Shown: positions 1 to 21,718, counted from the first letter of the stretch. The stretch is DNA of 64,000 nucleotides from Anaerolineae bacterium (GCA_049975205.1 JBNGDL010000013.1:12643-76642); one strand, 5' to 3'. Notes: a model not told the origin generated them from the letters alone. Translations and numbers: made by a program.

Positions 1-577
1 CGGCGTGGTCCTGGTAGAGGTACTTGGAGGTAAAGGGCTCCTGCTGATAGAGAACTTCGTCTGGCTCGATCCCTTCTGGAATGTGGATGGCAACGGCGAT
101 ATAACTCTGGCCTCGGACCGATGCAGCATCGAACCAAGTAGGCGTGATGCGCAACGAGGCGTACTCCCGGTCGGTCGTGTCCTGATAGACCATCTCGGGC
201 ATCGTAGCCTCGAAATGAAGCGTGCCACGCTCCCCTGAAGGGATTGCATGCTCGTGGAAATGGATCTCAACGCCGATGTCGATGAACTCGGAGGTCCGGA
301 TGTCTGTGAGACGGACACCATCGATGGAGGCCATCATGTTGCCGATGTTGTAGTTCCGATGTGGGAGGCCAATGTCGACAATGTCAATCGGAGATCCATA
401 GTTCTCAAAGGTGATGTCGTAGACGAGCCGGGCCGCGGCGTCGGGCTGGATGAAGACCTGCATCTTGAGATCCGGGACGGCGAACGAGTAGGACTGCGCC
501 TGGGCAGGCGCCGTGCCCAAGCCCAGGATCAGAACCAAGAGTCCCGCCAGCAAGAGTGACGACCAACGCTTAGGCAT
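1..577 (-). CDS. DUF2207-like secreted/membrane protein, N-terminal part only (C-terminus lies beyond the left window edge)
   Basis: Absent from the ORF track because it runs off the edge. Manual reverse translation from ATG at 575-577 (GGAGGA about 9 nt upstream) gives MPKRWSSLLLAGLLVLILGLGTAPAQAQSYSFAVPDLKMQVFIQPDAAARLVYDITFENYGSPIDIVDIG... with no stop down to position 1. It has a signal peptide. It is a clear paralog of the N-domain of the 643..2391 product (shared YDITFENYGSPIDIVD and ITPTWF). Confidence 0.65.
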   Translation of the reverse strand, partial: MPKRWSSLLLAGLLVLILGLGTAPAQAQSYSFAVPDLKMQVFIQPDAAARLVYDITFENYGSPIDIVDIGLPHRNYNIGNMMASIDGVRLTDIRTSEFIDIGVEIHFHEHAIPSGERGTLHFEATMPEMVYQDTTDREYASLRITPTWFDAASVRGQSYIAVAIHIPEGIEPDEVLYQQEPFTSKYLYQDHA

Positions 578-642
578 ATCGATAGGTTCCTCCACGAGGG
601 CAGTCGGCGGAGCCAAACCGCCCCAGGAATAATGTCAGACGA

Positions 643-2391
643 CTACCTTCCCCCACCGGCACATGCACACGCACACGCGCAGCCTGCGCAGGCGCACGCA
701 CAACTACTGCCACCGCCGGACCTGCTGCCAGAGGACCCGCTGGACACGCTGGGTTTCGATAGGGTGGTGGGCAAGATGGCGGCTGCCATACCGCCCATCG
801 TGTTCTCCGCCCACCCGGCAAAGGAGGCGGACACATCGCCAAAGGTCGTCGTGCCGCCACCGGATTTGCCGCCGGAAGGCCTGCTGCCTCCCGCTCCGGC
901 GGCGGTTGGGCCCGATGTTCGCGCCCAGGAGGGCCAGTAGTGATAGCCGCCAACCGTCAGGACAGGACGGTAGTCCCGACGCATCATCACCCACGGCAGG
1001 TACCTGTCGAGGTAGGCCTCCCGCTGTTCGATGTCCCCGATTGAGGAGGCCTGCTCCACGGCGCGGTCGATGACGCGCCGATAATAGTCTTGCGTGTCTG
1101 AGAGGTCAAACCCCTTCATCTTCGCGGCGACACCGTCCACGAGCTCCTGCATAGGCTTCACGACCGCGAGCTTGCTGACGGGTGTGTCAGGATGCGCTTC
1201 GATGAGATCGAGGAAGGATTGCTCATACTCGTGGATGACGGTTCCAGCTTCCTGCGCCGCACGCCGCCGGGCCTGCCGACGGCTCTCCTTATCGTCGAGA
1301 CCGGGTTTGTCGAGCACGCGAAAAGCCTCAACCACCTCGACGGTGAGCGGGTCGGGATCGGTCTGACGAATGAGGCCCTTCTCCAGCATACCAAAGATGA
1401 CAAGGCCCAGAATCTTGGTCAGCGGTAGCTCCAACAAGACGGCCGACTCAGGGGCGGTAAGCCCCCGCTTGATCCCACCCCCCTCAACCTGAGCGATGGG
1501 TGGCAGGTAGTTGGGCTTGATGCCCCGCACGACGGCACGCACAATCGAGAAAAGGATGAAGAGCGGGATGACCACCGGCAGGCATCCCAGTACTACGGCT
1601 CCCACACCGGGTAGGACTCTTCCCAGCCAACGTCCTACCAAGTCCCAGAAGGTGACGTTGATGACGTTGGTCATACCCTCGCGGGGAAAGGAGACGCCGA
1701 CGCGATAGACCTGGGTTGGTGCGACATCTTCGTAGCGCCAGACAGCCACGACGCGCCCCTGATCGTCGACGAACTTGTCGGTGAAAGGCTCGTCCTGGTA
1801 GATGACCGTCTCCGGGTCTAGGTTGGGTAGCGTCCTGACACGAATCTCGATGTCCCCGGTACCGCGCACCGATTCGCTTTCGAACCAGGTGGGCGTGATC
1901 TGCATCGAGGCCAGCTCCTCGTCCGTCGTGTCAGCATAGACCATGTCCGGAGAGACGAATTCGAGGTGTAGCGTGCCCGACTCGCCCGTCTGAATCGCCT
2001 GGCCATCCAAGTGGATCTCCACGCCGACGTCGATGTAGGTGGAGGGTCGGATATCACGCACTGGGGCGCCGTCGAGGGTGGCTGACATCTGCGATGTGTC
2101 GTAGTCCGAGTTGGGCGTACCAACATCCACAATATCGATAGGACTTCCGTAGTTCTCAAACGTGATATCGTAGACAATCTCCGCGGAGCCATCGGGTCGA
2201 ATGGTCGCATCCATCACTATCTCGGGCACGGCGAAGCTATAGGTCTGCAGAGATGGACGAGGGACGGCATCCGCAGCCGCCGGATGTGCTGAGAGTGACG
2301 TTGGCAACACGCCTGCCACCACCAAAAGAGAAGCCAGAAGCAGTGCAAAGCCGATCTTCTTTCCTCTATACATAGCGCCCATCCTATTCAT
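643..2391 (-). CDS. DUF2207-like membrane protein with Gly/Ser-rich linker and alternating Cys-Ala C-terminal tail
   Basis: Track ORF 643..2505. I prefer the internal start MNRMGAMYRGKKIGFALLLASLL (ATG at 2391), which gives a signal peptide. The N-domain is beta-rich and DUF2207-like. There is a strong TM (LPGVGAVVLGCLPVVIPLFILFSIV), then about 250 soluble residues, ending in GGGSSCACACAGCACACACAGGGR. Confidence 0.7.
   Translation of the reverse strand: MNRMGAMYRGKKIGFALLLASLLVVAGVLPTSLSAHPAAADAVPRPSLQTYSFAVPEIVMDATIRPDGSAEIVYDITFENYGSPIDIVDVGTPNSDYDTSQMSATLDGAPVRDIRPSTYIDVGVEIHLDGQAIQTGESGTLHLEFVSPDMVYADTTDEELASMQITPTWFESESVRGTGDIEIRVRTLPNLDPETVIYQDEPFTDKFVDDQGRVVAVWRYEDVAPTQVYRVGVSFPREGMTNVINVTFWDLVGRWLGRVLPGVGAVVLGCLPVVIPLFILFSIVRAVVRGIKPNYLPPIAQVEGGGIKRGLTAPESAVLLELPLTKILGLVIFGMLEKGLIRQTDPDPLTVEVVEAFRVLDKPGLDDKESRRQARRRAAQEAGTVIHEYEQSFLDLIEAHPDTPVSKLAVVKPMQELVDGVAAKMKGFDLSDTQDYYRRVIDRAVEQASSIGDIEQREAYLDRYLPWVMMRRDYRPVLTVGGYHYWPSWARTSGPTAAGAGGSRPSGGKSGGGTTTFGDVSASFAGWAENTMGGMAAAILPTTLSKPSVSSGSSGSRSGGGSSCACACAGCACACACAGGGR
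661..702 (-). repeat. Alternating Cys/Ala codon micro-repeat (TGY-GCN)n encoding CACACAGCACACACA
   Basis: The plus strand reads acatgcacacgcacacgcgcagcctgcgcaggcgcacgcaca. In the CDS frame this is 7 Cys codons alternating with Ala codons, plus one Gly. Confidence 0.85.
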
Positions 2392-2455
2392 AGACTTCAA
2401 CAGCTCTCCAGGTCTCAGAATTTCTGAATGTGCAAGACGGCGTCGCACGTCGTCC

Positions 2456-3748
2456 CTAGGTACTCTGTGCCCAACCGTGGGGATCGCGTGGGCAGTCCGC
2501 CGCACAGATGGCGAGCCCAGGGCACACCTCGCATCGTGTGGGAGCCTCTACACGCTCCCGGTAGCGTCGAAACACCGGGGCATTCCAGATGGCATCCCAA
2601 GACTCATGAAGGAGGTTCCCGGCGCTGTGATAGGGCCCGCGCGGCGGGATGACCTCACCCGTCGGTTCCACGCGTACCGCTACGTCGCCGGAGCAACGCG
2701 GCCCATCCAGCACCTGTTCCCTGAGGGGACGTGTTGGATCACGCTGGACGGGGGGATCCCAGATAAAGCGGGCCTGGGCCATATTGGCAGTCTCCTCGAC
2801 GGTTGTGGCAACTTGAGCCATCCCATCGCTGGTAAAGATCCCATCTGCGGTCGCGACGTCAGGATCGATGGTGGCATAGGCAACAAAGGAGAGATTGTCC
2901 GCGCCCTTTGCGATCAGGGTTTCGACGGTCTCCCCTAGTTGGTCCAGGGTTGTCTGAGTGAGAGGTACTTCCGCAACGGCGCTGATCTGATACCTTTCTA
3001 GCCAATCCAACACACTGCACGCCGCCGCCAGGTCGCCCTCCCCACAGAGTGCGTCGTGAATCTCGGGGTCATTCGCCGCAAAGAGGAAGGTCACGTGGTC
3101 CACGCCGGCCTGCCTGAGGTCGGCAAGGAACCCTTCGTCCTGGATATCACTGGCTCGGGCGCGGACCCCGGCAATCATCCCTAGGTCCTCGGCGCGCTCC
3201 ACGGCCTGGATCAAGTGCTTGGGGTCAAACCGGGACGGAGCGAGGAAGGTGACGTGAGGTATCCCCACCTCCCAAAGCCGATCCAGAAGCGGTGAGATCA
3301 CCGTAGGTTCGGCAAGCGACAGCGATGCCTGCAAAGGCGCGATCAACTCAGCGCTGTAGGGTGAGACGGCGGCGTCTTCGAGGTTGAAGACAGGGTAGGT
3401 GTCCCCCGGTGCCTTGATCTGCTCGATCAGGCCCCTGACCTTGGCGATGTCCGTGCGCAGCCTGTCTGTGTCGGTTCCCGAGAAGTGCTGTTTGAGCGCC
3501 GCGATGATCTCCGCTTCCGTTTGGCCTCTCAAGAGGCCTTTCGCAATCACCACGCCTGACGCCGTCAAGCGTGCAGCCGCCATAGCGTTGGCGATCAGTA
3601 TGCCACTGCCATCGTTTTCTACCCGCAGGTGGAATCGCGCAAAACCGCTCTCCGTCTCCTGCATCATGTGGTAGAGACCGGGCTCTACGGGGGGCGTAGC
3701 ATCGACCCGCTCAAAGGTCAGCAAGCGTCTGAGCCATTCTTTCACCAT
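2456..3748 (-). CDS. Pseudo-radical-SAM/SPASM-domain protein with N-terminal PqqD-like (RRE-type) domain
   Basis: Paralog of the 5133..6632 product: shared PGLY..HLR[VI][EQ][ND]DGSG N-terminus, EVGIPH[VI] core and C-terminal CxxCx5CxxxC (CEVCPGLAICAADC). The CxxxCxxC site is replaced by ASLSLAEP, and GGEP by APSRFDP. GGAGGG RBS lies 6 nt upstream of the ATG. Confidence 0.75.
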   Translation of the reverse strand: MVKEWLRRLLTFERVDATPPVEPGLYHMMQETESGFARFHLRVENDGSGILIANAMAAARLTASGVVIAKGLLRGQTEAEIIAALKQHFSGTDTDRLRTDIAKVRGLIEQIKAPGDTYPVFNLEDAAVSPYSAELIAPLQASLSLAEPTVISPLLDRLWEVGIPHVTFLAPSRFDPKHLIQAVERAEDLGMIAGVRARASDIQDEGFLADLRQAGVDHVTFLFAANDPEIHDALCGEGDLAAACSVLDWLERYQISAVAEVPLTQTTLDQLGETVETLIAKGADNLSFVAYATIDPDVATADGIFTSDGMAQVATTVEETANMAQARFIWDPPVQRDPTRPLREQVLDGPRCSGDVAVRVEPTGEVIPPRGPYHSAGNLLHESWDAIWNAPVFRRYRERVEAPTRCEVCPGLAICAADCPRDPHGWAQST

Positions 3749-3766
3749 CGGTACCCTCCTGAGGGT

Positions 3767-4507
3767 TTAGTCGGCTTGGGCTTTGTTATACTTTCTCTCG
3801 AACAGGTCGGGTTCATACGCTGCTCGTCTTCCGGGACAGATGTCCCGCGGACATAGCTGACAACTCTCAAAACGCTCTTCGGTGGGGAACCGGATGCCTG
3901 AGACCGTCTTGTTAGGAATCATCAGGAAGCTGTCTGTCAACTCGACCCCGATCGCGGCCTTAGGATCACCTAGGACTCGAAACAGGGGACGCTGCTCCCG
4001 AATCGGCCAATCTGCCAGCGAGCCAGGGGCCATTGTGGCGGTCTTGCCCAGCTCATAACAGGCATGTAGGTGCTCGTCTAGGGCCCGGATCGCGGCCCCC
4101 AGCGCTAACTCCTTGATGGCGTCCGCCCAGTATTGGTGCACCATATCGTCCAAGCCCTCTCCCCACGCCTGCAGCTCGGTGCCGCAGGTGGCGATGTAGG
4201 CAAAGACTCGGTGGGCGATCTCTAGGTTGACCCGGAGAACCCGGCTCCTTAGCTCAACCCCATCGATGAGGACCGAATCCGCACGCTTCTCATCAATAAA
4301 GGCGAGTCGGTACATCGCCTTTGGCCTGGCAAGGCTGGTCGCTTCGTTGAGTAACGGCTTCAGTTCGGAGATCTGCCCGCTGTCAGGCTTCAGCCTCAGT
4401 CGCTTCGCAAGAACGCTGATCTGAGGCTGGAAGGCGATGTCATCGAGCACAAAAGCCTGTTCGGATGATGCAGTGTCCATAAAGGTGTCAACTCCCGGTC
4501 TAGACAA
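3767..4507 (-). CDS. Methionine synthase activation-domain-like protein (Met_synt_B12-like, stand-alone)
   Basis: The architecture matches my memory of stand-alone B12-dependent methionine synthase activation-region proteins: ATCGTE..., MAPGSLADWPIREQRPLF, IGVELTDSFLMIPNKTVSGI. The C-terminal segment is Cys-rich (CQLCPRDICPGRR). The start is uncertain: TTG at 4507 or ATG at 4480. Confidence 0.5.
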   Translation of the reverse strand: MSRPGVDTFMDTASSEQAFVLDDIAFQPQISVLAKRLRLKPDSGQISELKPLLNEATSLARPKAMYRLAFIDEKRADSVLIDGVELRSRVLRVNLEIAHRVFAYIATCGTELQAWGEGLDDMVHQYWADAIKELALGAAIRALDEHLHACYELGKTATMAPGSLADWPIREQRPLFRVLGDPKAAIGVELTDSFLMIPNKTVSGIRFPTEERFESCQLCPRDICPGRRAAYEPDLFERKYNKAQAD

Positions 4508-4510
4508 CGG

Positions 4511-5044
4511 TCACTGCTGCTTTCGAAGGAGTCCACGCAGCAGAACGATTACGCCAAGGCCGATAAACAAAATGGGCCAGCCGATAAAGCCAAGGCCCAA
4601 GCCGCTGATGTTCAGAATCAGCTCAAAGAAGAAGAGACCGACCAGAAACATGATGACGCCGATGTTGACCAGCGTCGCACCTGTCCTGACTGCGCTGTCC
4701 CGATTCGAGATCCAACCGTAGAGCATCTCAGCCAATCCCACGCCGGTCGGCGCGATCAGTGTCCACGCGTAGGCCCAACTTGCCCAGTGCTCTGTGAGGC
4801 TCTGATACAGGAGCAGGATGCCAACCATGGTGATCATGCCGGCCACCATCGCCAGCGGCTCTCCTAGGGCACCTTCAACGCTGGTGGCAAAGACGAAGAG
4901 GAGCACACCCGGAAAGACGATCAGGAGCGGCCAGATGACTCTGCCGATGCTAATGGGAAGAAATTGCCCCGCGAGGGCCAGGATGCCGAGCACGATCAGC
5001 GTGATACCGACCGCGCGGACGAATTTCGCGACGTTCTGTGTCAT
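4511..5044 (-). CDS. Polytopic integral membrane protein (about 5 TM), unknown function
   Basis: Hydrophobic throughout with regularly spaced TM segments. AAGGGGG RBS is present. Its stop lies 3 nt from the next gene's start. No family recognised. Confidence 0.55.
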   Translation of the reverse strand: MTQNVAKFVRAVGITLIVLGILALAGQFLPISIGRVIWPLLIVFPGVLLFVFATSVEGALGEPLAMVAGMITMVGILLLYQSLTEHWASWAYAWTLIAPTGVGLAEMLYGWISNRDSAVRTGATLVNIGVIMFLVGLFFFELILNISGLGLGFIGWPILFIGLGVIVLLRGLLRKQQ

Positions 5045-5132
5045 AGGTTGCCCCCTTGTACTACGTGACGCTCAGGAACGCTGTCCATACGGCGGCGAGT
5101 CGGCTGGCCTACGCAACGCCGATCCTCCGCCG

Positions 5133-6632
5133 TCATTCTTCTGAGATCCTTACGTAGTCTGCTGCAGCCACCGGGTTCGGCTTTGAGACACCCTGGCCTG
5201 AGGCCCGCAGGCGAGCGCGGGCGCACCCGTGCTCTGCAGGCCTCAGACCGGCCCGTGTCTCTCGCTCCAACCGGCATCCGCCGCCGCACATCTCTAGGTC
5301 GGGACAGTCCCAACAGGCAGGCGGGAGGCCTGCGGCCTCGGGCGCTTCCTCGCGATTGCGGAAGCTTCGGAAGAGATCGCTCTCCCAGATGGCTTCCCAG
5401 GGATCAGCCAGGATGTTGCCTCCCGCGCCGTAATAGGACTGGCAGGGCAGGACATCGCCGTTCGGTTCGATACAGATTGAGTACTCCGCCGCATTACAGC
5501 GCTTCGGTGCAAGACCGAGGGCCACCGGCGAGAGACGACAATAGTCCGTCACGGTATACCATAAGAAGCGCATATCCAGCGCCTCAGCCTCATCGCGGAC
5601 TGCCACAAGCAGTCCTGCCATCTCCTCAACAGGGATGGCGTCTGGGGTTGTCGCTCCCCCCCCGGCGTAGATGATGCCGTTCATCGCGAAGGTCCTCAGG
5701 CCCAAATCGTGGAGGTAGCGGACGATATTCAGGGCATGGTCCTGGTTCTGTCGCGTCAACGTCGTGTTAGTGATCGTGTGGATTCCGGACTCTAGGGCGT
5801 TCTTGATGCCTGCTATGGTTTCTTCAAAAGCGCCAGGCGACCCGACCATCTCGTCGTGAATCCCTGGATAACAGGATTCCAAGGTAATCTGCACGTGATT
5901 GAGGCCAGCGCTGGAGAGCGTCTCCACAAGGGTGCGGTCTGAAAGGCGCCGTCCATTCGTGTTCATACCAACGATCTGGCCCAAGTTGTCGGCGTAACGG
6001 ATGAGCTCTGGGAGTGCCGAATGAAGCGTCGGCTCTCCGCCGGTCAGGATGATGTGGGGCACGCCGATCTCCACCAGCTTGTCCAGCACGCGAAACCAAT
6101 CTGCTCGCGACAAGGATTTCATGGCGAACCTGTCGGGCTCGTTATAGCAGTGCGGGCAGGCGTTGTTGCACGCGTAAGTTAAAGCCACGTCAGCCTTGTA
6201 AGGGGCTTTAGCCCGCCTGCTAAAGACGGGCTGAAACTCCAACATGGGCGCAATCTGACACGTGGGGCAGCCGTCTCCAGGCTCGCGCAGCTGCTGGGTC
6301 ATCTCGTACATCGATGAAACAGCCTGAGACAACTCGGACTTGCTCACGCCGCGATAATGTCGTGCCATCTGTGTCTCGGCCTCAGACTGGGGAATGCCAT
6401 CCAGCGCCAGCTTGATCATTTGTGCAGCAGTCTCGTTCAGGTGGATGACGTCGGTGACGTCGATGAAGAGCACGCCACTGCCGTCCTCTTGTATCCGCAG
6501 ATGGATTCGTCGTTGCCCGCCATTGAGGCGGAGTGGATAGGTGTAGAGTCCTGGCGCAGGGGAACTGAGCCCAGGCTGCAGAGCTTCCCGGACGGTGTCA
6601 AGTAGCTGATTCCATTGGGTGCGCAAACTCAT
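5133..6632 (-). CDS. Radical SAM/SPASM-domain enzyme with fused N-terminal PqqD-like RRE domain
   Basis: CxxxCxxC at ALTYACNNACPHCYN (6147..6170). GGEPTL SAM motif. SPASM CxxCx5CxxxC (ACWDCPDLEMCGGGC). The N-terminal HLNETAAQMIKLALDGIPQSEAETQMARHY is PqqD-like. Confidence 0.85.
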   Translation of the reverse strand: MSLRTQWNQLLDTVREALQPGLSSPAPGLYTYPLRLNGGQRRIHLRIQEDGSGVLFIDVTDVIHLNETAAQMIKLALDGIPQSEAETQMARHYRGVSKSELSQAVSSMYEMTQQLREPGDGCPTCQIAPMLEFQPVFSRRAKAPYKADVALTYACNNACPHCYNEPDRFAMKSLSRADWFRVLDKLVEIGVPHIILTGGEPTLHSALPELIRYADNLGQIVGMNTNGRRLSDRTLVETLSSAGLNHVQITLESCYPGIHDEMVGSPGAFEETIAGIKNALESGIHTITNTTLTRQNQDHALNIVRYLHDLGLRTFAMNGIIYAGGGATTPDAIPVEEMAGLLVAVRDEAEALDMRFLWYTVTDYCRLSPVALGLAPKRCNAAEYSICIEPNGDVLPCQSYYGAGGNILADPWEAIWESDLFRSFRNREEAPEAAGLPPACWDCPDLEMCGGGCRLERETRAGLRPAEHGCARARLRASGQGVSKPNPVAAADYVRISEE

Positions 6633-6655
6633 AGCTATCTATACTCTACGTGTGA

Positions 6656-6688
6656 GCGCCTCCAAAGTCGCATAGGCCTTGGAGGCGC
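6656..6688 (-). terminator. GC-rich hairpin between the zinc-ribbon gene and the rSAM gene (possible terminator or processing/regulatory stem)
   Basis: GCGCCTCCAA-13 nt loop-TTGGAGGCGC, a perfect 10-bp stem. There is no clear U-tract. Confidence 0.35.
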
Positions 6689-6822
6689 GTGGATGGAGCC
6701 AGATGTGACGATCGCCCGATGGCGGTATGGGTCGGAATCTGACGACTAGAGGACGACGGCCTGCGCGCGACGCGACTCAGACGGTCAGAGCGATCGCTGT
6801 GGCTGTCGTCGAAGCCAGCCTC

Positions 6823-7164
6823 CTACCATTTCGGAGCTTCCTCTATCTGATAAGAAGCGCCACAGTAAGGACACTCGACAAAGATGGCGCCCGCCTTGAC
6901 CTCCAGGTTCTCCTTGCTCAGCGCGCCGCCACAGGAGCGGCACTTGAGCTGCTCCAGCTGAACGTCGCCCGATAGATCAATCTGCTGGATGTGGGTAATC
7001 TCCTCTTTCTTGGGGCGCACGCGGGTGAGGTAGATAAGCACACCCGCTGCGACAAAGAGGATAAGGCCGACCGCGATACGGATGAACTGGCCCTGGCTCC
7101 CAACGACAAACATGAAGCCGAAGAATGCCAGGACGGCTGCAATCAGGTAGGTCACGATCTCCAT
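6823..7164 (-). CDS. Small membrane protein with C-terminal zinc-ribbon (CxxC...CxxC)
   Basis: Two N-terminal TM helices, then CRSCGG...CPYCGA. AAGGAGA RBS. Confidence 0.55.
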   Translation of the reverse strand: MEIVTYLIAAVLAFFGFMFVVGSQGQFIRIAVGLILFVAAGVLIYLTRVRPKKEEITHIQQIDLSGDVQLEQLKCRSCGGALSKENLEVKAGAIFVECPYCGASYQIEEAPKW

Positions 7165-7325
7165 TGCGTTCTCCTTGCAATGCTGTCAGGGTTGCAGGCG
7201 ATAGTATAGTTCATCCAGCCACGAGGTCAATGTGAGAGTCGTTGATGACGACCAGGGGCGGAGCGCGATTAATGTTGCCGCGCTCGCGCCCCCGGATTTC
7301 CGAAGACCGACGGAAGAGGATAGCC

Positions 7326-8645
7326 CTATTCGGCAGCCGGGTTGAAGATGCGTCCGACGAAGAGGACCGCCCCCGTTTGGTTGTCCCGAATCAGGAAGAT
7401 GAAGGGACGATCGATGGTCATCTCAACGGGCTCCCCGGGCATCGCCGAGGTGAGTCCCACGACGACGGCGGTTGCCGCTGCTGCCTCGGTTCCCTCCTCG
7501 TCGACGGAGACGAAAGCCTGATGGAAGACATCGGTGATCATCAGCTCCCGATTGCCGGTCATGCCAGAGAAATCGGCTTCCTCAGTAAACGCCGTGGGCA
7601 TGCCTAGTGCCGTCAGGGCATCGGTCAGACTGAATTTGGATCGCATCTCGAATCTCGGCATCGACAGGATCAGGCGCTGGCGTTCAAAATCCTCGAGAAT
7701 GGCGGTGAGCGTCTCAGAATCCAGGCTTTGCTCGAACTCGGTGAACTCACCGGTGTCAGGAAGCAGGATCACCATCGACAGCTCGTGGCCATCGTAGGGC
7801 AATGCCACAGCCTGATACCCTTCGCCTGCTGCGTAATCGAAGGGCGTGGTCTGGTGCATCATGGGCACCTCGACCGTGGTTCCATCCAGGAGATAGAAGG
7901 GCGCCTGCTCGGTCTGCCTTTCCTCGAAGGGCTCGGCCCACGCGGCGTTGAAGTAGATCGCGTTGGTCAGTACCAGACGGGTGAGTGCATCCAACGCACC
8001 CTGCGGAATCAAATCCTCGATCCGTCCCTCGGTCTGGTCGCTGACCCACTCGTTGATGGTCTGTCGAGCCGCCTCTGCGTCCTCGATGAAGTTTACAAGC
8101 CTGAGCCCCGCACCATAGTTCCGGGCAAGGACATCTAGGAAGGCCTGCTGGAACTCATAGTCCTTCTGCCCCCAAAGGGCGTTCACGATGTGGAGCCGGA
8201 ATCCCTCGCCGTCCTTCCCTTCGGCGCCTTCGCCGCGTTGGCTCAGGGCCTGGTCGAGAGCGTTGAAGGCTGGGTGCAGACGATCCTGGGGTAAGTTGAA
8301 GTGGAGGGTTTCAGCCATCTCCGCTTCTGTCTCCCCCCGGGCCCCGGCGTAGGTCATCGCAAGCGCCGCGGTGATACTGTGTGGCGATAGGAAGAGATCG
8401 CCGTCGGATATCTGGGCAAGGTAGTGGTAGAGATCGAGTGCGAAAGCCTGGTTCCCCTCGATCAGAGCAGCCAGATCCTCAGATGGAACCTCGGGATTGG
8501 TTACGCGAGACTCATCGGATGCGGCCAGAACAATCTGACCGCTTTGTGCTTGACCGTCATTCACCGGTGGACTCATCGTACACCCCACGATTCCCAACAG
8601 CGCTACCAACAGCAGCGAGCGCTTGAGTAAGTGTTTCATCTTCAC
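7326..8645 (-). CDS. Serpin family protease inhibitor, predicted lipoprotein
   Basis: Lipobox LLGIVGC. Serpin hinge EEGTEAAAATAVV. C-terminal signature DRPFIFLIRDNQTGAVLFVGRIFNP. Confidence 0.9.
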   Translation of the reverse strand: MKMKHLLKRSLLLVALLGIVGCTMSPPVNDGQAQSGQIVLAASDESRVTNPEVPSEDLAALIEGNQAFALDLYHYLAQISDGDLFLSPHSITAALAMTYAGARGETEAEMAETLHFNLPQDRLHPAFNALDQALSQRGEGAEGKDGEGFRLHIVNALWGQKDYEFQQAFLDVLARNYGAGLRLVNFIEDAEAARQTINEWVSDQTEGRIEDLIPQGALDALTRLVLTNAIYFNAAWAEPFEERQTEQAPFYLLDGTTVEVPMMHQTTPFDYAAGEGYQAVALPYDGHELSMVILLPDTGEFTEFEQSLDSETLTAILEDFERQRLILSMPRFEMRSKFSLTDALTALGMPTAFTEEADFSGMTGNRELMITDVFHQAFVSVDEEGTEAAAATAVVVGLTSAMPGEPVEMTIDRPFIFLIRDNQTGAVLFVGRIFNPAAE

Positions 8646-8752: not shown

Positions 8753-9349
8753 TTAGCCGACACCGAATCCTGGGTGCCCCGGCGCCGGCATGCAGATGAT
8801 CTCAAGGAAGCAAAGGTCGAAGAAGGTCTGGGCGTGGGTGGGCTGTAGAATGACGGCCGTGTCGCTCCCCCTCCCCGTCCCGGCCACGGCGATGATGGGA
8901 TCTCCTTCGGGCACGAGCCCTGCGTCGGAGGCCATCAGCGTGATCTCGGCAGCGACCTTCATGCCCTCGCCAAAGCGACGGAGGGTATAGGCGATAATTT
9001 CCTCTGTCTCGTAAGTGCCGAGCTTCTTGCGGACGGCACGCCCCACGCCGCCGAAAGCATGCGTGGTCGTGAGCACCTTGGCCCCCAGCGCCTCGATCTG
9101 GCCGACAATCTCCGGATCGTGCTCGACGGCATAGGGCTCCCGGAACCCTGCAGAGTGGGTCACGGCGACTATATTCAGGGAGCTCAGCGATCTTGCGGCC
9201 CGCAGGCCGGTGGCACCGCTGGTTGTGGCGACCAACACAGTCTGAATATCGAGCGCTTGAGCGCGCTTAGCGACCAGGGCCAAGGCGCGGTCGGTATTGT
9301 CCGGGCCAGGCGCTGCGAAATAGACGGTGCTTGATGTCAGTTCGTCCAT
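8753..9349 (-). CDS. Pyruvate kinase C-terminal (alpha/beta) domain-like protein
   Basis: Start re-set to MDELTSSTVYFAAPG (AAGGAGGAA RBS). Family-like motifs are VLVATTSGATG, VTHSAGF, GMKVAAEITLMASDAGL and GSDTAVIL. Confidence 0.6.
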   Translation of the reverse strand: MDELTSSTVYFAAPGPDNTDRALALVAKRAQALDIQTVLVATTSGATGLRAARSLSSLNIVAVTHSAGFREPYAVEHDPEIVGQIEALGAKVLTTTHAFGGVGRAVRKKLGTYETEEIIAYTLRRFGEGMKVAAEITLMASDAGLVPEGDPIIAVAGTGRGSDTAVILQPTHAQTFFDLCFLEIICMPAPGHPGFGVG

Positions 9350-9635
9350 CGGTTCCTCCTTGTAAACATAGGTACGGTCCGTTGCGGCATAACCATCACG
9401 TACAAGCTTAGGCGCGGACTCTGCTATAACGTACTTCCTTAGTATAGAAGGGGCAGCGGATTGATCAATCATCACCTTCGCGGAGCCTTCAGCGATCTAG
9501 CTTCTGTGGTATCATAGGTGTGAGTCGCCCAACACAGCTAGATATGTACCTTGGCGGCACCAGTTGAGAGAGACGCTTCCCTATCCTCGGACGCGGCGAT
9601 CCTGAGCTTTGACACTTGGAGAGGAGTGAGCAGAG

Positions 9636-10514
9636 ATGTCGAAATTCGGAGCCTATCTGGCTACCAAAGAAGTCCTCGTTGCAGACGGAGCCACGGGGAC
9701 CATGCTTCAACAGGCGGGTCTGCCAGCCGGGGCAGCGCCGGAGCGCTGGAGCCTCGAGAATCCGGAGGCCATCCGCCGCCTGCACCAAAGCTATATCAGT
9801 GCCGGCGCTGACCTGATCCTCACCAACACCTTCGGCGGCACCCCGATTCGACTCAAGCGAGAAGGTCTGGCCGATCAGGCGGCGGAGATCAACCGCGCGG
9901 CGGCGCAACTAGCCCGTGAGGTAGCAGGCGACATTGCCCTGGTCGTGGGTGACATCGGGCCAACAGGCGAGATGTTAGCACCCTTGGGCACCCTGACCTA
10001 TGACGATGCGGTCTCTGCCTTTGCCGTGCAGGCCGGTGCGTTGGCGGAAGGTGGCGCACAGGCGATCCTGATCGAGACGATGAGCGATCTGACGGAGGTG
10101 CAGGCTGCCGTCGAGGCGGTACGGCAGGCCTGCAACCTGCCCCTGCTGGTGACCATGAGCTTCGATACAAAGGGACGGACGATGATGGGGGTGAAACCCG
10201 AGCGCGCAGCCGAGACGCTGCAGGCACTCGGTGTCGATGTTATGGGCGCCAACTGCGGACGCACGCTGACCGAGACCCTCGAGGCTGTCCTGAAGATGCG
10301 CCAGGTCGCTCCTGATGCGACGTTGATGGCCAAGCCCAATGCCGGGCTTCCGCACGCTGAGGGCGGTGAGCTCGTCTATGATGTCACGCCGGCGGTGATG
10401 GCTGAGTACGCCCTTCGGTTCGTTGAGGAGGCCGGTGTCAAGATCTTTGGCGGATGCTGCGGCAGTACCCCGGCGCACATTCAGGCGATTGCCGAGGTCC
10501 TGAAGTCCGCCTGA
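9636..10514 (+). CDS. Homocysteine S-methyltransferase domain protein (MetH N-terminal module-like, stand-alone)
   Basis: LVADGATGTML, ILTNTFG, and the zinc-site motif GGCCGSTPAHI near the C-terminus. GGAGAGGAG RBS. Confidence 0.85.
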   Translation: MSKFGAYLATKEVLVADGATGTMLQQAGLPAGAAPERWSLENPEAIRRLHQSYISAGADLILTNTFGGTPIRLKREGLADQAAEINRAAAQLAREVAGDIALVVGDIGPTGEMLAPLGTLTYDDAVSAFAVQAGALAEGGAQAILIETMSDLTEVQAAVEAVRQACNLPLLVTMSFDTKGRTMMGVKPERAAETLQALGVDVMGANCGRTLTETLEAVLKMRQVAPDATLMAKPNAGLPHAEGGELVYDVTPAVMAEYALRFVEEAGVKIFGGCCGSTPAHIQAIAEVLKSA

Positions 10515-17751: not shown

Positions 17752-20700
17752 GGGATTGGATTCAACAGACGCTGACCGTCACCCGGAAAGAGCTACGCGG
17801 TTACTTCAGCTCGCCTATGGCGCTGATCTTTGTAGGCAGCTTCCTCGCTGCTGTACTCTTCTCGTTCTTCTGGGTTGACACGTTTTTTGCTCGGGGTATC
17901 GCGGACGTGCGTCCCTTGTTCCGTTGGATGCCCATTTTGATGATTTTCCTGGTCGCCGCGCTGACGATGCGGCAGTGGAGCGAGGAGCAGCGCTCGGGAA
18001 CCCTCGAGATTCTGCTGACCCTCCCCGTCTCGACGACGCAGTTGGTGATCGGGAAGTTCCTGGCTGTGGTGAGTTTGGTGGTCGTCGCGCTCTCTCTGAC
18101 GATCTTCCTCCCCATTACGGTCTCCTTGCTGGGGAATTTGGACTGGGGTCCTGTGGTTGGCGGGTATGTCGCCGCGACCTTGCTCGCAGGCGCTTATGCA
18201 GCAATCGGGCTCTTTATCTCGTCCCGGACGGATAACCAGATTGTTGCCTTGATCTCAACCGTCCTTCTGTGCGGCCTACTCTATCTAGTAGGCTCCGCCG
18301 GTGTGACGGACTTCTTTGGAAATGAGGTGGGTGAGGTCCTGAGAGCGATCGGTGCGGGCAGCCGCTTTGAGTCTATTCAGCGCGGTATCATCGATCTGAG
18401 AGACCTTGTCTACTATGTATCGCTTGCCGGGCTCTTCCTTACCCTCAATGTTATCTCGCTCAAAGCCAAAGGATGGAGCGAGGGAGAGCAGACGCTGCCG
18501 AAGCGACGGGGCGTCGCGATTACGTCGGCGTTGCTTGCGGTGAACTTGCTTTTTGCTAACGTCTGGATGTTCCCCCTGCGTGGTCTGCGGCTCGACCTCA
18601 CGGAGTACAACGAGTACACGCTGTCGGACACGACGAAGGAGCTGCTGAGCGCCTTGCAGGAGCCGTTGCTGATTCGGGGGTACTTTAGCGAGAAGACGCA
18701 TCCTCTGTTGGCGCCGCTGGTCCCGCGGGTGAGGGATATGCTTCGAGAATACCAGGTGGCGTCCGGCGGCACCGTTACGTTGGAGATCATAGATCCCGCC
18801 GAGGAGCCAGAGAAAGAGGCTGAGGCCAATCAGGTCTACGGCATCCAGCCCACGCCTTTCCAGGTCTCCGGGCGCTATGAGGCATCGGTGATTAACTCCT
18901 ACTTCAATATCCTCATTCAGTATGGGGATCAGAGCGCAGTGCTCGGCTTCAACGATCTGATCGAGGTGGAGCCCTTGCGCGACGGAGGTATTGACGTCCG
19001 GCTGCGCAACCTGGAGTATGATCTCACCAGCAGCATCAAGAAGGTCGTCTATGGGTTCCAGAGCGCGGACGCTATCTTGGCTTCGCTCACAGAACCCGTC
19101 CAGATGACGGTCTATATCACGCCTGACACGCTTCCCGAGTGGCTCTCCGAGGTCCCGAACACGATCGACACGGTCTTGCAGGATCTGGCTGAGCGCTCCG
19201 GCGGGCAGTTCACCTATGAGTTTGTGGATCCTGATGATCCAGATAGCGATGTCGGTCGGCAGGAGCTCTACGATCTCTACGGACTTCGTCCGCTTGCGGT
19301 CTCGCTCTTCTCTGATCAGAGCTACTATCTTTACATGGTGATGGAGTCGGGAGACAACATGCAGGTTGTCTACCCGCAGGGGGACGTGAGCGAGGCCGAT
19401 GTCCGGTCGGCGGTTGAGTCGGCCCTGAAGCGCACTGCGTCAGGGTTCCTGCAGGTCGTTGGTCTGTGGGTGCCACCCTCAACGCCTACCCAGGATATGT
19501 TCGGGCAGACGCAACAACCAATCTCCTCGTGGCAGCAGATTCGCGAGACCCTTGCGCAGGAGTATGAGGTTCGCACGATCGACCTTAGCACCGGCAACGT
19601 GCCGGCTGATGTCGATGTGCTTGTCCTCATTGGCCCTCAGGGTCTGGACGATAAGGCCCGTTATGCCATCGACCAACACCTGATGCGGGGAGGCTCTGTG
19701 GTGGTCGCCGCGGGTAACATGACGATTATGCCCGACCAGATGACCGGCAGTATTGCCGCACGCCCTCTTGAGGGAAGCCTCAAGGAGATGCTCGCGCACT
19801 ATGGGTTCACGGTCGAGGCGTCTCTGGTGCTGGACACTCAGAATGAGCCCTTCCCGATCCCCGTGACTCGACAGGTCGGGGGATATCAGGTGCAGGAGAT
19901 CCAGGCGTTGGACTATCCGATGTTCGTGGATATCCGCTCGGACGGCATGGCCAAGGACAGCCCCATCGTCAGTGGGTTGCCCGCGGTGACGCTCAACTGG
20001 GCTTCGCCGATCACGGTAGATGCAACGAAGAACGCCGAGCGTGAGGTGACGGCGCTCTTGAAGTCGTCACCCCAGTCCTGGCTGCAGGAAGGCTACGACA
20101 TTCAGCCGGACTTCGAGCTCTATCCTGAGACAGGCTTCCCGAGCTTGGGTACTACGCAGTCTTACACGTTGGCCGTCTCGGCCCGCGGTGTCTTTGAGTC
20201 CTACTTCGCAGACAGGGCCTCACCTTTGGAGGAAGCTGCCCAAAGCGAGGCTGAGGTTGCAGGGGAGGGCACCCCAACCCCGGAGACGCCGACGACGGTC
20301 GGCACCATCGAGGTGTCGCCCGATACGGCTCGTCTCGTGGTGATCGGGAGTCTGGAGTTCGTCGATGACATCGTGTTGGAGCTTTCTCAGACGCTGGGCG
20401 GCGACCGCTACCTGAACAATCTGAAGTTCGTGCAGAATGCGGTGGCGTGGAGTGTCGAGGATCTAGATCTGTTGAACATTCGATCGCGCGGCACCTCTGC
20501 GCGGGTGCTGATCCCGATGGAGGAGAATGAGCAATCGTTCTGGGAGATCCTGAACTATGCGCTGGCGCTGGCGGCCCTTGTGGTCATTGGCGGCGCCTCC
20601 GCAGTGCGCCGTCGTAGTGAGGCGCCGATGGCGTTGCTTCCTCGTGAGGAGGTAGGCTACGAATCATCGCGTCGTTGGAGCGCTGACGGCATGCAAGAGG

Positions 20701-20765
20701 CAAAGGCCTCTGGAGGAGTTCGCGGTGAGGCCCCTGAAGGGGCTTCGGAGGAGGTTGTGAGATGA
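17748..20765 (+). CDS. ABC-2 permease (GldF-like) fused to a GldG-like auxiliary domain
   Basis: Start ATG overlaps the upstream stop (ATGA). About 6 TM in the N-terminal roughly 270 aa. A large GldG/ABC_transp_aux-like extracytoplasmic region follows, then a C-terminal TM (ILNYALALAALVVIGG). Confidence 0.75.
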   Translation: MRDWIQQTLTVTRKELRGYFSSPMALIFVGSFLAAVLFSFFWVDTFFARGIADVRPLFRWMPILMIFLVAALTMRQWSEEQRSGTLEILLTLPVSTTQLVIGKFLAVVSLVVVALSLTIFLPITVSLLGNLDWGPVVGGYVAATLLAGAYAAIGLFISSRTDNQIVALISTVLLCGLLYLVGSAGVTDFFGNEVGEVLRAIGAGSRFESIQRGIIDLRDLVYYVSLAGLFLTLNVISLKAKGWSEGEQTLPKRRGVAITSALLAVNLLFANVWMFPLRGLRLDLTEYNEYTLSDTTKELLSALQEPLLIRGYFSEKTHPLLAPLVPRVRDMLREYQVASGGTVTLEIIDPAEEPEKEAEANQVYGIQPTPFQVSGRYEASVINSYFNILIQYGDQSAVLGFNDLIEVEPLRDGGIDVRLRNLEYDLTSSIKKVVYGFQSADAILASLTEPVQMTVYITPDTLPEWLSEVPNTIDTVLQDLAERSGGQFTYEFVDPDDPDSDVGRQELYDLYGLRPLAVSLFSDQSYYLYMVMESGDNMQVVYPQGDVSEADVRSAVESALKRTASGFLQVVGLWVPPSTPTQDMFGQTQQPISSWQQIRETLAQEYEVRTIDLSTGNVPADVDVLVLIGPQGLDDKARYAIDQHLMRGGSVVVAAGNMTIMPDQMTGSIAARPLEGSLKEMLAHYGFTVEASLVLDTQNEPFPIPVTRQVGGYQVQEIQALDYPMFVDIRSDGMAKDSPIVSGLPAVTLNWASPITVDATKNAEREVTALLKSSPQSWLQEGYDIQPDFELYPETGFPSLGTTQSYTLAVSARGVFESYFADRASPLEEAAQSEAEVAGEGTPTPETPTTVGTIEVSPDTARLVVIGSLEFVDDIVLELSQTLGGDRYLNNLKFVQNAVAWSVEDLDLLNIRSRGTSARVLIPMEENEQSFWEILNYALALAALVVIGGASAVRRRSEAPMALLPREEVGYESSRRWSADGMQEAKASGGVRGEAPEGASEEVVR

Positions 20766-21718
20766 AACGACATCAGCAGATCCTGTTAGGTGTGCTGGTC
20801 GTTCAGGTGATCCTGACCGCCGTGGTTTTCTGGCCGCGAGAGGCAGCGGTAAGCTCGGGAGAGCTGCTCTTTCCCGAGCTGACGACCGACGATATCGTGG
20901 CCCTGACGGTGATCGACAATGCAGGGGAAGAGATAACGCTGCGGAAGGTAGATGGGACCTGGGTCTTGCCTGACGGCGGCAACTACCCGGTCAAGGAAAG
21001 CACCATTACCCCGGTCCTGGAGAAGATCGTGGCTTTGGACACCGCGACACTCGTGGCTCGCACCGAGTCCAGCCATAAGGCGCTGCAGGTGTCTGACGAC
21101 ACCTTCCAACGGCGACTCGACATCGAGACGGCCGAGGGAGAGAGGCACACGATTTTCGTTGGCTCGGCTCCGCGCTACACCGCAACGCACTTCCGAGTTG
21201 CTGGGCAGCCGGAGACGTATCTGACGAGTGGGCTTTCCACCTGGGAGTTGAACCCGGCGGCCTCAGGATGGATCGACACCGCTTACACCGATGTCGACGC
21301 AGAGACGCTCACGAGCGTGGTCCTTGAAAACGGCCAGGGTGTCGTCACGTTGGTGAAGGACGGAGAGAACTGGACACTTGCCGACCTCGCCGAGGACGAG
21401 ACCATCGCGACCACCAAGACCAACGCCATCGTGCGGAATGCGACGGGGCTTTCGATGATGCGCCCCTTGGGCAAGACGGAAGAAGAGGCCTATGGGATGG
21501 CGTCGCCGAATGCCGTGGTCACGCTCGAGGCCGAGGACGGCGGGACGTATGTGCTCATGATCGGAGCAATCGATCCAGCTGACAATAGCTATGTGGCCAA
21601 GTACTCTGAGTCGCCGTACTACGTGCGCGTGCAGGAGTTCAACGTCAAGGCCATGGTTGAGAACAGTCGTGAGGACTTCCTCACCGTGCCCGCCACACCG
21701 ACGCCCGCGTCAGAGTAG
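20762..21718 (+). CDS. DUF4340-like protein (N-terminal anchor), partner of GldG-like systems
   Basis: ATGA start/stop overlap with the upstream gene. N-terminal TM. Position and composition fit the DUF4340 proteins that follow GldG-like genes. Confidence 0.6.
   Translation: MKRHQQILLGVLVVQVILTAVVFWPREAAVSSGELLFPELTTDDIVALTVIDNAGEEITLRKVDGTWVLPDGGNYPVKESTITPVLEKIVALDTATLVARTESSHKALQVSDDTFQRRLDIETAEGERHTIFVGSAPRYTATHFRVAGQPETYLTSGLSTWELNPAASGWIDTAYTDVDAETLTSVVLENGQGVVTLVKDGENWTLADLAEDETIATTKTNAIVRNATGLSMMRPLGKTEEEAYGMASPNAVVTLEAEDGGTYVLMIGAIDPADNSYVAKYSESPYYVRVQEFNVKAMVENSREDFLTVPATPTPASE

Follow-up and report, generated by a model that had tools for sequence, protein, structure and literature searches.

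What does a radical S-adenosylmethionine (rSAM) enzyme of the peptide-modifying type act on when no small peptide is encoded beside it? The question is raised by an operon at the left end of a 64,000-nucleotide stretch of DNA from an Anaerolineae bacterium (GCA_049975205.1 JBNGDL010000013.1:12643-76642; the whole stretch is referred to as the window), which encodes an rSAM enzyme with a SPASM domain and an inactive pseudo-rSAM paralogue, each with an N-terminal recognition element (RRE) of the kind known from peptides that are made on ribosomes and modified after translation (RiPPs). Small peptides are the usual targets of RRE-bearing rSAM/SPASM enzymes (PMC10114670). The answer that we favour, with a little more than an even chance of being right, is a membrane-associated, RiPP-like maturation system, in which the rSAM/SPASM enzyme modifies the Cys-Ala repeat that ends a membrane protein of the same operon, assisted by the partners proposed below.

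The operon and its invariant tail

Positions 1-7164 hold seven co-directional minus-strand open reading frames (ORFs), separated, from the ZnR gene onward, by gaps of 190, 88, 3, 18, 64 and 65 nt, exactly as the preliminary description of this DNA had it:

6823..7164, minus strand: ZnR, a 113-aa zinc-ribbon membrane protein, first gene of the operon (ORF)
5133..6632, minus strand: active RRE-rSAM/SPASM enzyme, 499 aa (ORF, Pfam and motifs)
4511..5044, minus strand: polytopic membrane protein, 177 aa, with weak LiaF-TM similarity (Pfam E=2e-4, below cutoff)
3767..4507, minus strand: MetH-activation-like protein, 246 aa, stand-alone, with a C-terminal CxxCx4C motif (PF02965, sub-cutoff)
2456..3748, minus strand: pseudo-rSAM paralogue, 430 aa (CxxxCxxC lost, RRE kept)
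643..2391, minus strand: Cys-Ala-tail membrane protein, 582 aa with the ATG at 2391 as its start (ORF and AlphaFold2 (AF2) model)
643..702, minus strand: coding segment of the tail, CACACAGCACACACAGGGR, with its stop codon; proposed site of modification (from its invariance)
1..577, minus strand: second Cys-Ala-tail paralogue, first 192 codons, running off the left edge of the window (ORF)

The 582-aa protein, of which the protein database entry is a 576-aa form, has CACACAGCACACACAGGGR as its C-terminus (the end of the protein is also written SSCACACAGCACACACAGGGR). Tail genes were extracted from 49 Anaerolineae loci found with the rSAM enzyme, and all complete copies, from both paralogue lineages, end in (CA)2-3G(CA)4GGGR. 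Seventeen tail residues are identical in 55 genes, whereas the bodies of the proteins are only 45-70% identical. At the nucleotide level these 55 tails vary at synonymous sites: TGT and TGC are used about equally, and all four Ala codons, all four Gly codons, six Arg codons and, after the tail, all three stop codons are found. Since the synonymous codons vary freely while the residues are invariant, selection acts on the peptide and not on the DNA or RNA, and a DNA-level cause of the GC/TG-rich repeat, such as a simple repeat or structure, was rejected for the same freedom of synonymous sites. The codon pattern of the CACACAGGGR type occurs once in the window, against an expectation of zero.

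The tail is retained far beyond these loci. An exhaustive, profile-free search with the protein body as the query and the tail removed yielded a family of 674 representatives at 50% clustering, and the tail was present in 230 of the 269 family proteins sampled; most of the remaining 39 are fragments or frameshifted calls, judging from the sequences displayed. Nearly all full-length representatives, down to about 30% identity, carry one of two registers, (CA)3G(CA)4GGGR or (CA)4G(CA)3GGGR. Asgard archaea of the lineages Hodarchaeota, Promethearchaeota, Ranarchaeia and Helarchaeales have a third form, CACACAC(V/A)SCACACAGGGR, with CACACACVSCACACAGGGR as the tail of the clade of protein P0203 (loci L176 and L177), and in Bathyarchaeota the end of the tail is slightly altered. 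Two proteins, P0469 (labelled Bathyarchaeota) and P0479, have a variant tail with Val for some of the Ala residues and the end ...CACVCACVSCACACAGGGVG, which is the only clear deviation from the terminal GGGR.

A conserved five-gene module

On the enzyme side, ZnR lies directly upstream of the rSAM gene in 45 of the 49 genome loci, three of the four exceptions starting at a contig edge, and in the window's gene order the pseudo-rSAM gene is always directly upstream of the tail gene. In relatives, the second copy of the tail gene ends in that tail too, and a class-I methyltransferase gene comes next (at 17920-18666 of L001, for instance), which would place it just beyond the window's left edge; this conserved gene had not been recognised in the preliminary description. 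It matches only generic class-I models (DVU_1556-, BioC- and UbiE-like), all below their cutoffs. The two halves of the cluster are sometimes separated by unrelated genes, encoding a Ser/Thr kinase, a GNAT protein, a dehydrogenase or a nitroreductase-like protein. The kinase gene (~420-510 aa) lies between the rSAM gene and the next gene of the module in one Anaerolineae sub-lineage (L011, L013-L016, L021, L022, L024, L029, L031 and L049), accompanied by a ~190-aa GNAT-like gene in L015, L022, L024, L029 and L049, and elsewhere this insertion point is taken by a gene for a short-chain dehydrogenase or a nitroreductase-like protein.

On the tail side, metagenome contigs were scanned with nothing but a degenerate codon pattern for CACACAGGGR and a stop codon, which returned 80 loci. 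Wherever this could be checked, the match lies at the end of a tail-family protein; about ten short loci have too little upstream sequence to judge. The rSAM gene is present in 48 of the 53 loci with at least 1.5 kb downstream, and ZnR is upstream of the tail protein in 37 of the 41 with upstream sequence. The commonest order is ZnR, tail protein, rSAM, pseudo-rSAM and methyltransferase, in which the register is (CA)4G(CA)3GGGR, while the window's register goes with the window's order. The rSAM gene starts at a median of 66 nt past the stop codon of the tail, an adjacency that resembles the classic layout of precursor and maturase.

The co-occurrence of rSAM genes with the tail-protein family, whose absence would have counted against the preliminary description, is recurrent from the enzyme side (49 loci) as well as from the tail side (80 loci), and the conserved module consists of ZnR, the tail protein, the RRE-rSAM/SPASM enzyme, the RRE-pseudo-rSAM protein and the class-I methyltransferase. 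The same five genes are found, reordered, in a relative of 31% identity (L050, a 3.6-Mb contig), and they also occur in an Asgard (Ranarchaeia) contig. Asgard pairs of ZnR and tail protein lie at 9147-11743 of L176 and 8088-10455 of L178 (Hodarchaeota) and at 1465-4935 of L177 (Ranarchaeia, with rSAM adjacent). In L176, ZnR and the tail gene are separated by an additional gene, for a 118-aa CxxC...CxxC protein; in L050, three more rSAM genes and a 156-aa gene lie about 3 kb downstream of the module (18467-21713).

The radical SAM enzyme and its inactive paralogue

The active enzyme matches the rSAM family PF04055 at 1.3e-26, and its CNNACPHC motif is conserved across 44 homologues. Its SPASM domain (PF13186, 4.8e-10) has the seven cysteines for two auxiliary clusters, in a conserved Cx8Cx9C...CxxCx5Cx3C...C arrangement. 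The nearest solved structure is the sactisynthase SkfB (1.4e-19), and GDGT-MAS is also among the PDB matches (3e-8). Against NCBIfam, the top matches are heme-type (AhbD/NirJ) families, and the enzyme stays far below the cutoff of every curated rSAM family, with scores against cutoffs of 72.5/850 bits for AlbA, 79.7/300 for SkfB and 77.9/625 for StsB.

In the pseudo-rSAM protein, the CxxxCxxC cluster motif is absent from all 35 homologues aligned, so that the label given to it in the preliminary description is correct. It keeps five SPASM cysteines (C...CxxCx5Cx3C). With TIGR04347 it has the loss of the Cys triad in common, but the family is a different one (23 bits against a cutoff of 525).

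The PqqD-like N-termini that had been noticed on both SPASM proteins are sub-threshold in the window proteins taken alone (E ~1e-3; 19 bits against a cutoff of 23.4 for PF05402) and real at the level of the family: 29 of 43 homologous N-termini match PF05402, the best at 6.4e-8, and a joint profile of the N-termini matches the lasso-peptide RRE TfuB1 (6jx3_B) at 6.6e-7.

Architecture and topology of the tail protein

Searches of Pfam, NCBIfam and PDB sequences with the tail protein gave no significant family. In its AF2 model (pLDDT, the predicted local distance difference test, 83), a signal or anchor helix is followed by a beta-sandwich ectodomain, one transmembrane helix and a basic stretch, and the cytoplasmic part comprises a winged helix with a helical bundle, a disordered Gly/Ser spacer and the disordered tail. 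A fold search matched the ectodomain to ribophorin I/OST1 and to the N-domains of M1 aminopeptidases, which are matches to a generic beta-sandwich only. One 838-aa family member (P0207; L054 102-2618) has two tandem beta-sandwich ectodomains ahead of the transmembrane helix and the tail.

The single transmembrane helix and the positive stretch that follows it place the tail in the cytoplasm, as does the positive stretch before the ZnR ribbon for the latter; rSAM enzymes work in the cytoplasm. A natural fusion of 948 aa (P0142; L051 486-3332), with the methyltransferase gene next to it, joins a pseudo-rSAM protein lacking the SPASM part to a complete tail protein, and fits an N-in topology of the tail protein. 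As the only instance seen, it is a Rosetta-stone fusion or else an artefact of read-through.

Upstream of the tail, clade-specific conserved motifs precede a Gly/Ser-rich spacer, which has 53% Gly+Ser in the last 15 residues before the tail and a median of 16 residues after an xNP motif where that motif occurs. By analogy, the region resembles the leader, spacer and core of a RiPP precursor.

The label 'DUF2207-like' that the protein had been given fails the Pfam thresholds (PF09972/PF20990). The window protein has no Pfam match even at E<=10, DUF2207 included, and no NCBIfam match at E<=0.01; for ten relatives, there is no DUF2207 match in Pfam at E<=0.1 and nothing in NCBIfam at E<=0.1. When the Pfam limit is relaxed to E<=10, five of ten other relatives match PF20990 at E 0.04-1.8, with scores no higher than 14 bits (cutoff 33), and these sub-threshold matches recur on the same juxtamembrane winged-helix region. 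UniRef labels one family member DUF2207. A remote kinship to DUF2207 is thus possible from these sequence matches, while membership is unsupported by the Pfam cutoffs. Proteins of the DUF2207 (PF09972/PF20990)/TIGR04222 type may be similar in layout, with the order of signal or anchor, ectodomain, transmembrane helix, cytoplasmic region and low-complexity tail that the AF2 model also has. Their C-terminal tails are Gly- or Gly/Cys-rich, in contrast to the exact, invariant sequence found here. We know of no linkage of DUF2207 to rSAM enzymes, and a literature search likewise found none.

What the enzyme is likely to modify

Comparison of sequences makes the tail, rather than a small peptide, the most likely target of the enzyme, because it is under extreme purifying selection at the protein level, is retained at 30% body identity and across domains of life, and is linked near-obligately to rSAM. 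That Ala, Gly and Arg are as fixed as Cys argues for recognition or participation of an enzyme and not for mere metal binding, and the possession of a peptide-binding RRE by both rSAM-like proteins, at loci with no room for a small precursor gene, counts for the tail as well. The preliminary description had proposed such a maturation of a protein tail, and this part of it has gained strong, though indirect, comparative support from selection, depth and linkage.

Several observations weigh against this reading. Several Anaerolineae loci have ZnR and rSAM without a tail gene nearby, including L035, L039 and L044, whose flanks extend over 8-10 kb; in two Hodarchaeota loci, ZnR and the tail protein are present with no rSAM gene within 7-10 kb; and one tail gene is an orphan (L107). 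The linkage of tail and rSAM, judged at the level of loci, is hence near-obligate but not absolute. In addition, the enzyme resembles heme- and PQQ-type families no less than sactisynthases; with several families matched alike and no curated cutoff reached, its sequence is uninformative on the chemistry.

The Cys-rich tail could instead be conserved for binding a metal or an Fe-S cluster and stay unmodified. As a metallothionein-like CxCxC element, it would make the membrane protein a scaffold or acceptor, with rSAM, pseudo-rSAM and methyltransferase acting on something else, be it a lipid, a small molecule, or a cofactor that is built on the tail or passed to it. Seven cysteines with CxC spacing on a flexible cytoplasmic end would suit this role, rSAM enzymes that build or insert cofactors or act on membrane lipids exist, as the matches to AhbD/NirJ and to GDGT-MAS recall, and the loci at which the tail protein lacks an adjacent rSAM gene would be accommodated. 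However, the ligation of a metal needs no invariant Ala, Gly or terminal Arg, nor does it explain why the peptide-binding RRE is kept in both rSAM-like proteins. The stop codon of the tail directly abuts the rSAM gene in most loci, as for a substrate and its enzyme, and the module includes no conserved gene for metal transport or for a cofactor pathway, which leaves a metal-binding tail as an unlikely explanation.

The very conserved ZnR could be a substrate itself, the true or a second one, modified at the four cysteines of its ribbon or at its invariant C-terminal ...EExKW, with the tail protein as a partner. It has two N-terminal transmembrane helices, a cytoplasmic CxxC...CPYC zinc ribbon and the end YQIEEAPKW. 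Although the 190-nt gap had made its gene appear set apart from the operon, it is the most tightly linked partner, beside the rSAM gene or the tail protein in nearly every locus and the sole partner of the enzyme in the loci with ZnR and rSAM only. Across Anaerolineae, ZnR shows 63-96% identity, higher than the 61-74% of the enzyme, and its distant bacterial and Asgard homologues retain CxxCG, C(P/K/T)YC and the terminal Trp; rSAM/SPASM enzymes that cross-link Lys and Trp are known. Yet the Lys before the terminal Trp is replaced in the Asgard homologues (PRW, PIW), and in the AF2 model, in which helices 2-21 and 27-48 are followed by the strands of the ribbon, YQIEE is itself a strand and only the four residues APKW are free, unlike a flexible core peptide. 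Conservation over the whole length, transmembrane helices included, with 113 aa in nearly all cases, is of the kind seen in structural or adaptor proteins and not in a leader with a core. In this model ZnR looks like a folded adaptor rather than a substrate, and we regard modification of ZnR as quite improbable.

The absence of a classical precursor, noted in the preliminary description, is borne out. The 190-nt gap contains no minus-strand ORF of at least 20 aa and no Rfam match, and none of the window's intergenic gaps contains an operon-strand ORF of at least 20 aa. In relatives, the equivalent junctions shrink to 7-30 nt and therefore hold no conserved small precursor gene. A small gene just outside the window, which the preliminary description had named as the outcome that would speak against it, is likewise not found in the relatives' sequence past the left edge, where the second tail gene and the methyltransferase gene are followed by unrelated genes, and no further conserved gene was found in 129 related loci, the 80 metagenome loci among them. 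An overlooked conventional precursor, in the cluster or just beyond the window, is thus effectively excluded, even though enzymes of this class normally modify small peptides (PMC10114670) and the window ends within the cluster.

A proposed route of maturation

For the favoured maturation of the tail, the following route may be envisaged. The tail protein would cross the membrane once, so that its C-terminal domain, the Gly/Ser spacer and the (CA)3G(CA)4GGGR end reach into the cytoplasm. The RRE of the active rSAM enzyme would bind the clade-specific motif a few dozen residues upstream of the tail, and the RRE of the pseudo-rSAM protein may bind the same motif, the dead paralogue assisting the active enzyme. 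ZnR would tether the soluble enzymes at the membrane beside their substrate. The rSAM/SPASM enzyme would then perform radical chemistry on the Cys-Ala repeat, with thioethers of the sactionine or ranthionine type, from Cys sulfur to neighbouring Ala or Gly carbons, as the most likely product, to which the methyltransferase would add methyl groups. As no protease or exporter is conserved, the product would stay attached to the membrane protein. Gene content, linkage, the invariance of the tail, domain identities and topology are established by the analysis; we infer with caution that the tail is the substrate and that ZnR and the pseudo-enzyme have these roles, and with most caution the chemistry: thioether cross-linking and methylation are a guess, made by analogy from the Cys-rich substrate and the class of the enzyme.

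A further-reaching version is that rSAM/SPASM enzyme and methyltransferase turn the end of the tail into a new, covalently modified structure that remains tethered to the membrane, such as a poly-thioether ladder bearing methyl groups or an internal site for redox chemistry or a metal. The pathway, conserved between Chloroflexota and Asgard archaea, would have a dedicated zinc-ribbon adaptor and a pseudo-enzyme chaperone of its own, and would be the first in RiPP style whose precursor is a large integral membrane protein; we put this version forward tentatively, as a possibility somewhat short of an even chance.

Lineage-specific and neighbouring genes

The MetH-activation-like and LiaF-like genes are lineage-specific extras. 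The LiaF-like gene occurs in only some Anaerolineae loci and in 1 of the 80 metagenome loci. The MetH-like gene is found only in loci with the window's gene order and in 1 of 38 metagenome loci of at least 6 kb, against 34 of the 38 for rSAM, which rules out that the accessory role suggested for its product is a general one. The label of this protein is itself weakly supported. With PF02965 it scores 23.7 bits against a cutoff of 25; the profile of its family, searched against PDB, has a sole significant match, to the stand-alone activation domain TM0269 (1j6r, E=0.003), with six further MetH chains at non-significant E values of 0.06-0.3. At the place of the SAM-binding P-G-x-x-x-x-P region, its motif MAPGSLADWP...LF..LG aligns by eye with APGYPACP of MetH.

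Two non-coding features of the operon were recorded:

6633..6822, minus strand: 190-nt gap between genes, with a GC-rich hairpin of 12 bp; not conserved (no ORF, no Rfam match)
7201..7230, minus strand: sigma-70-like match TTGACC-16-TATACT, ~40 nt upstream of the ZnR start (10/12 matches, consensus only)

The 190-nt gap as such has no significant fold (z = -1.6), and the sigma-70-like match is a plausible candidate for the operon promoter. The 64-kb window as a whole gave no match to a tRNA, tmRNA or Rfam family.

The gene immediately upstream of the operon encodes a serpin of 439 aa (PF00079, 1.5e-121; 7326-8645, minus strand). The N-terminal hydrophobic stretch of the serpin ends in Cys (LLGIVGC) and resembles a lipoprotein signal, and the gene is syntenic with the operon in several, not all, related Anaerolineae loci. 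Beyond it lies a gene for a 240-aa protein with a pyruvate-kinase C-terminal-like domain (8753-9475, minus strand), which lies between the operon and a divergent gene for a homocysteine S-methyltransferase, a lone 292-aa domain (PF02574, 1e-74; 9636-10514, plus strand). Many relatives keep the latter two genes in synteny with the operon. Combined with the MetH-activation-like gene, the homocysteine S-methyltransferase gene could represent a MetH split into parts or a connection to the SAM cycle; genes for pterin or B12 binding do not adjoin it.

Relation to known systems

The closest parallels are the maturases of sactipeptides and ranthipeptides (AlbA, SkfB, ThnB, CteB and PapB), which likewise have an N-terminal RRE, an rSAM core and SPASM, and act on a Cys-rich substrate whose coding end is directly beside the enzyme gene. 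AlbA-type enzymes form Cys thioethers (PMC10114670). In contrast to these systems, the 'precursor' here is the C-terminus of an integral membrane protein of ~580 aa and not a peptide of 30-60 aa, a protease and exporter are absent, and the conserved partners include a zinc-ribbon membrane protein, a methyltransferase and a dead paralogue; the rSAM enzyme scores far below the curated cutoffs of the sactisynthase families, and its thioether chemistry is guessed. Whole proteins are modified by known rSAM/SPASM enzymes, namely sulfatases by anSME and QhpC by QhpD (PMC10114670), and there cysteines within a protein are modified and the modification is retained for function (PMC10114670). However, QhpC is a small soluble subunit with Cys-Asp/Glu links, and anSME requires a C/S-x-P/A-x-R motif, of which the C-x-[PA]-x-R form is absent from the tail CACACAGCACACACAGGGR, as read directly from the sequence. 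A substrate in the membrane, a repeat of alternating Cys and Ala, ZnR and a pseudo-enzyme are missing from both systems.

A third group comprises the uncharacterised rSAM 'target peptide' systems of NCBIfam, such as the FibroRumin Cys-rich RiPP (TIGR04135/TIGR04133), the ACGX-repeat system (TIGR04340), the SynChlorMet cassette and the TIGR04053/TIGR04347 pair of rSAM and pseudo-SAM. Going by their family names, these resemble the present system in their Cys-rich or short-repeat targets, their pairs of active and inactive rSAM/SPASM proteins and their PqqD-type recognition, and differ from it in that the targets are stand-alone small peptides. The tail matches TIGR04135 at E=0.17-0.29, and this match, like all others to these systems, is generic and stays far below the cutoff. 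The tail protein, ZnR, the rSAM clade and the pseudo-rSAM protein are without a model in Pfam or NCBIfam, the sources annotate the proteins of the system as 'hypothetical', and literature searches on the system and on Cys-Ala tails found nothing relevant. This is hence a widespread gene set of bacteria and archaea for which neither a curated family nor a published description was found.

Implications

The module may extend rSAM/SPASM-RRE maturation to the tail of a membrane protein, with new obligatory partners. Genome mining for RiPPs seeks a small precursor beside an RRE-rSAM gene, so that clusters like this one are dropped as 'orphans'; here, the orphan would be explained by an exact motif of 17-19 residues at the end of a membrane protein, found in hundreds of sequence clusters of Bacteria and Archaea. 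The codon pattern of the tail is a simple handle for finding the whole system in metagenomes, and conservation of the tail to such a degree demands a specific chemical role. Should the tail be modified, a short and readily synthesised test substrate is at hand, for example the peptide GGSSCACACAGCACACACAGGGR; integral membrane proteins would become a new class of substrate, probably with new chemistry, for rSAM/SPASM enzymology, and a large family of 'hypothetical' proteins would gain a function.

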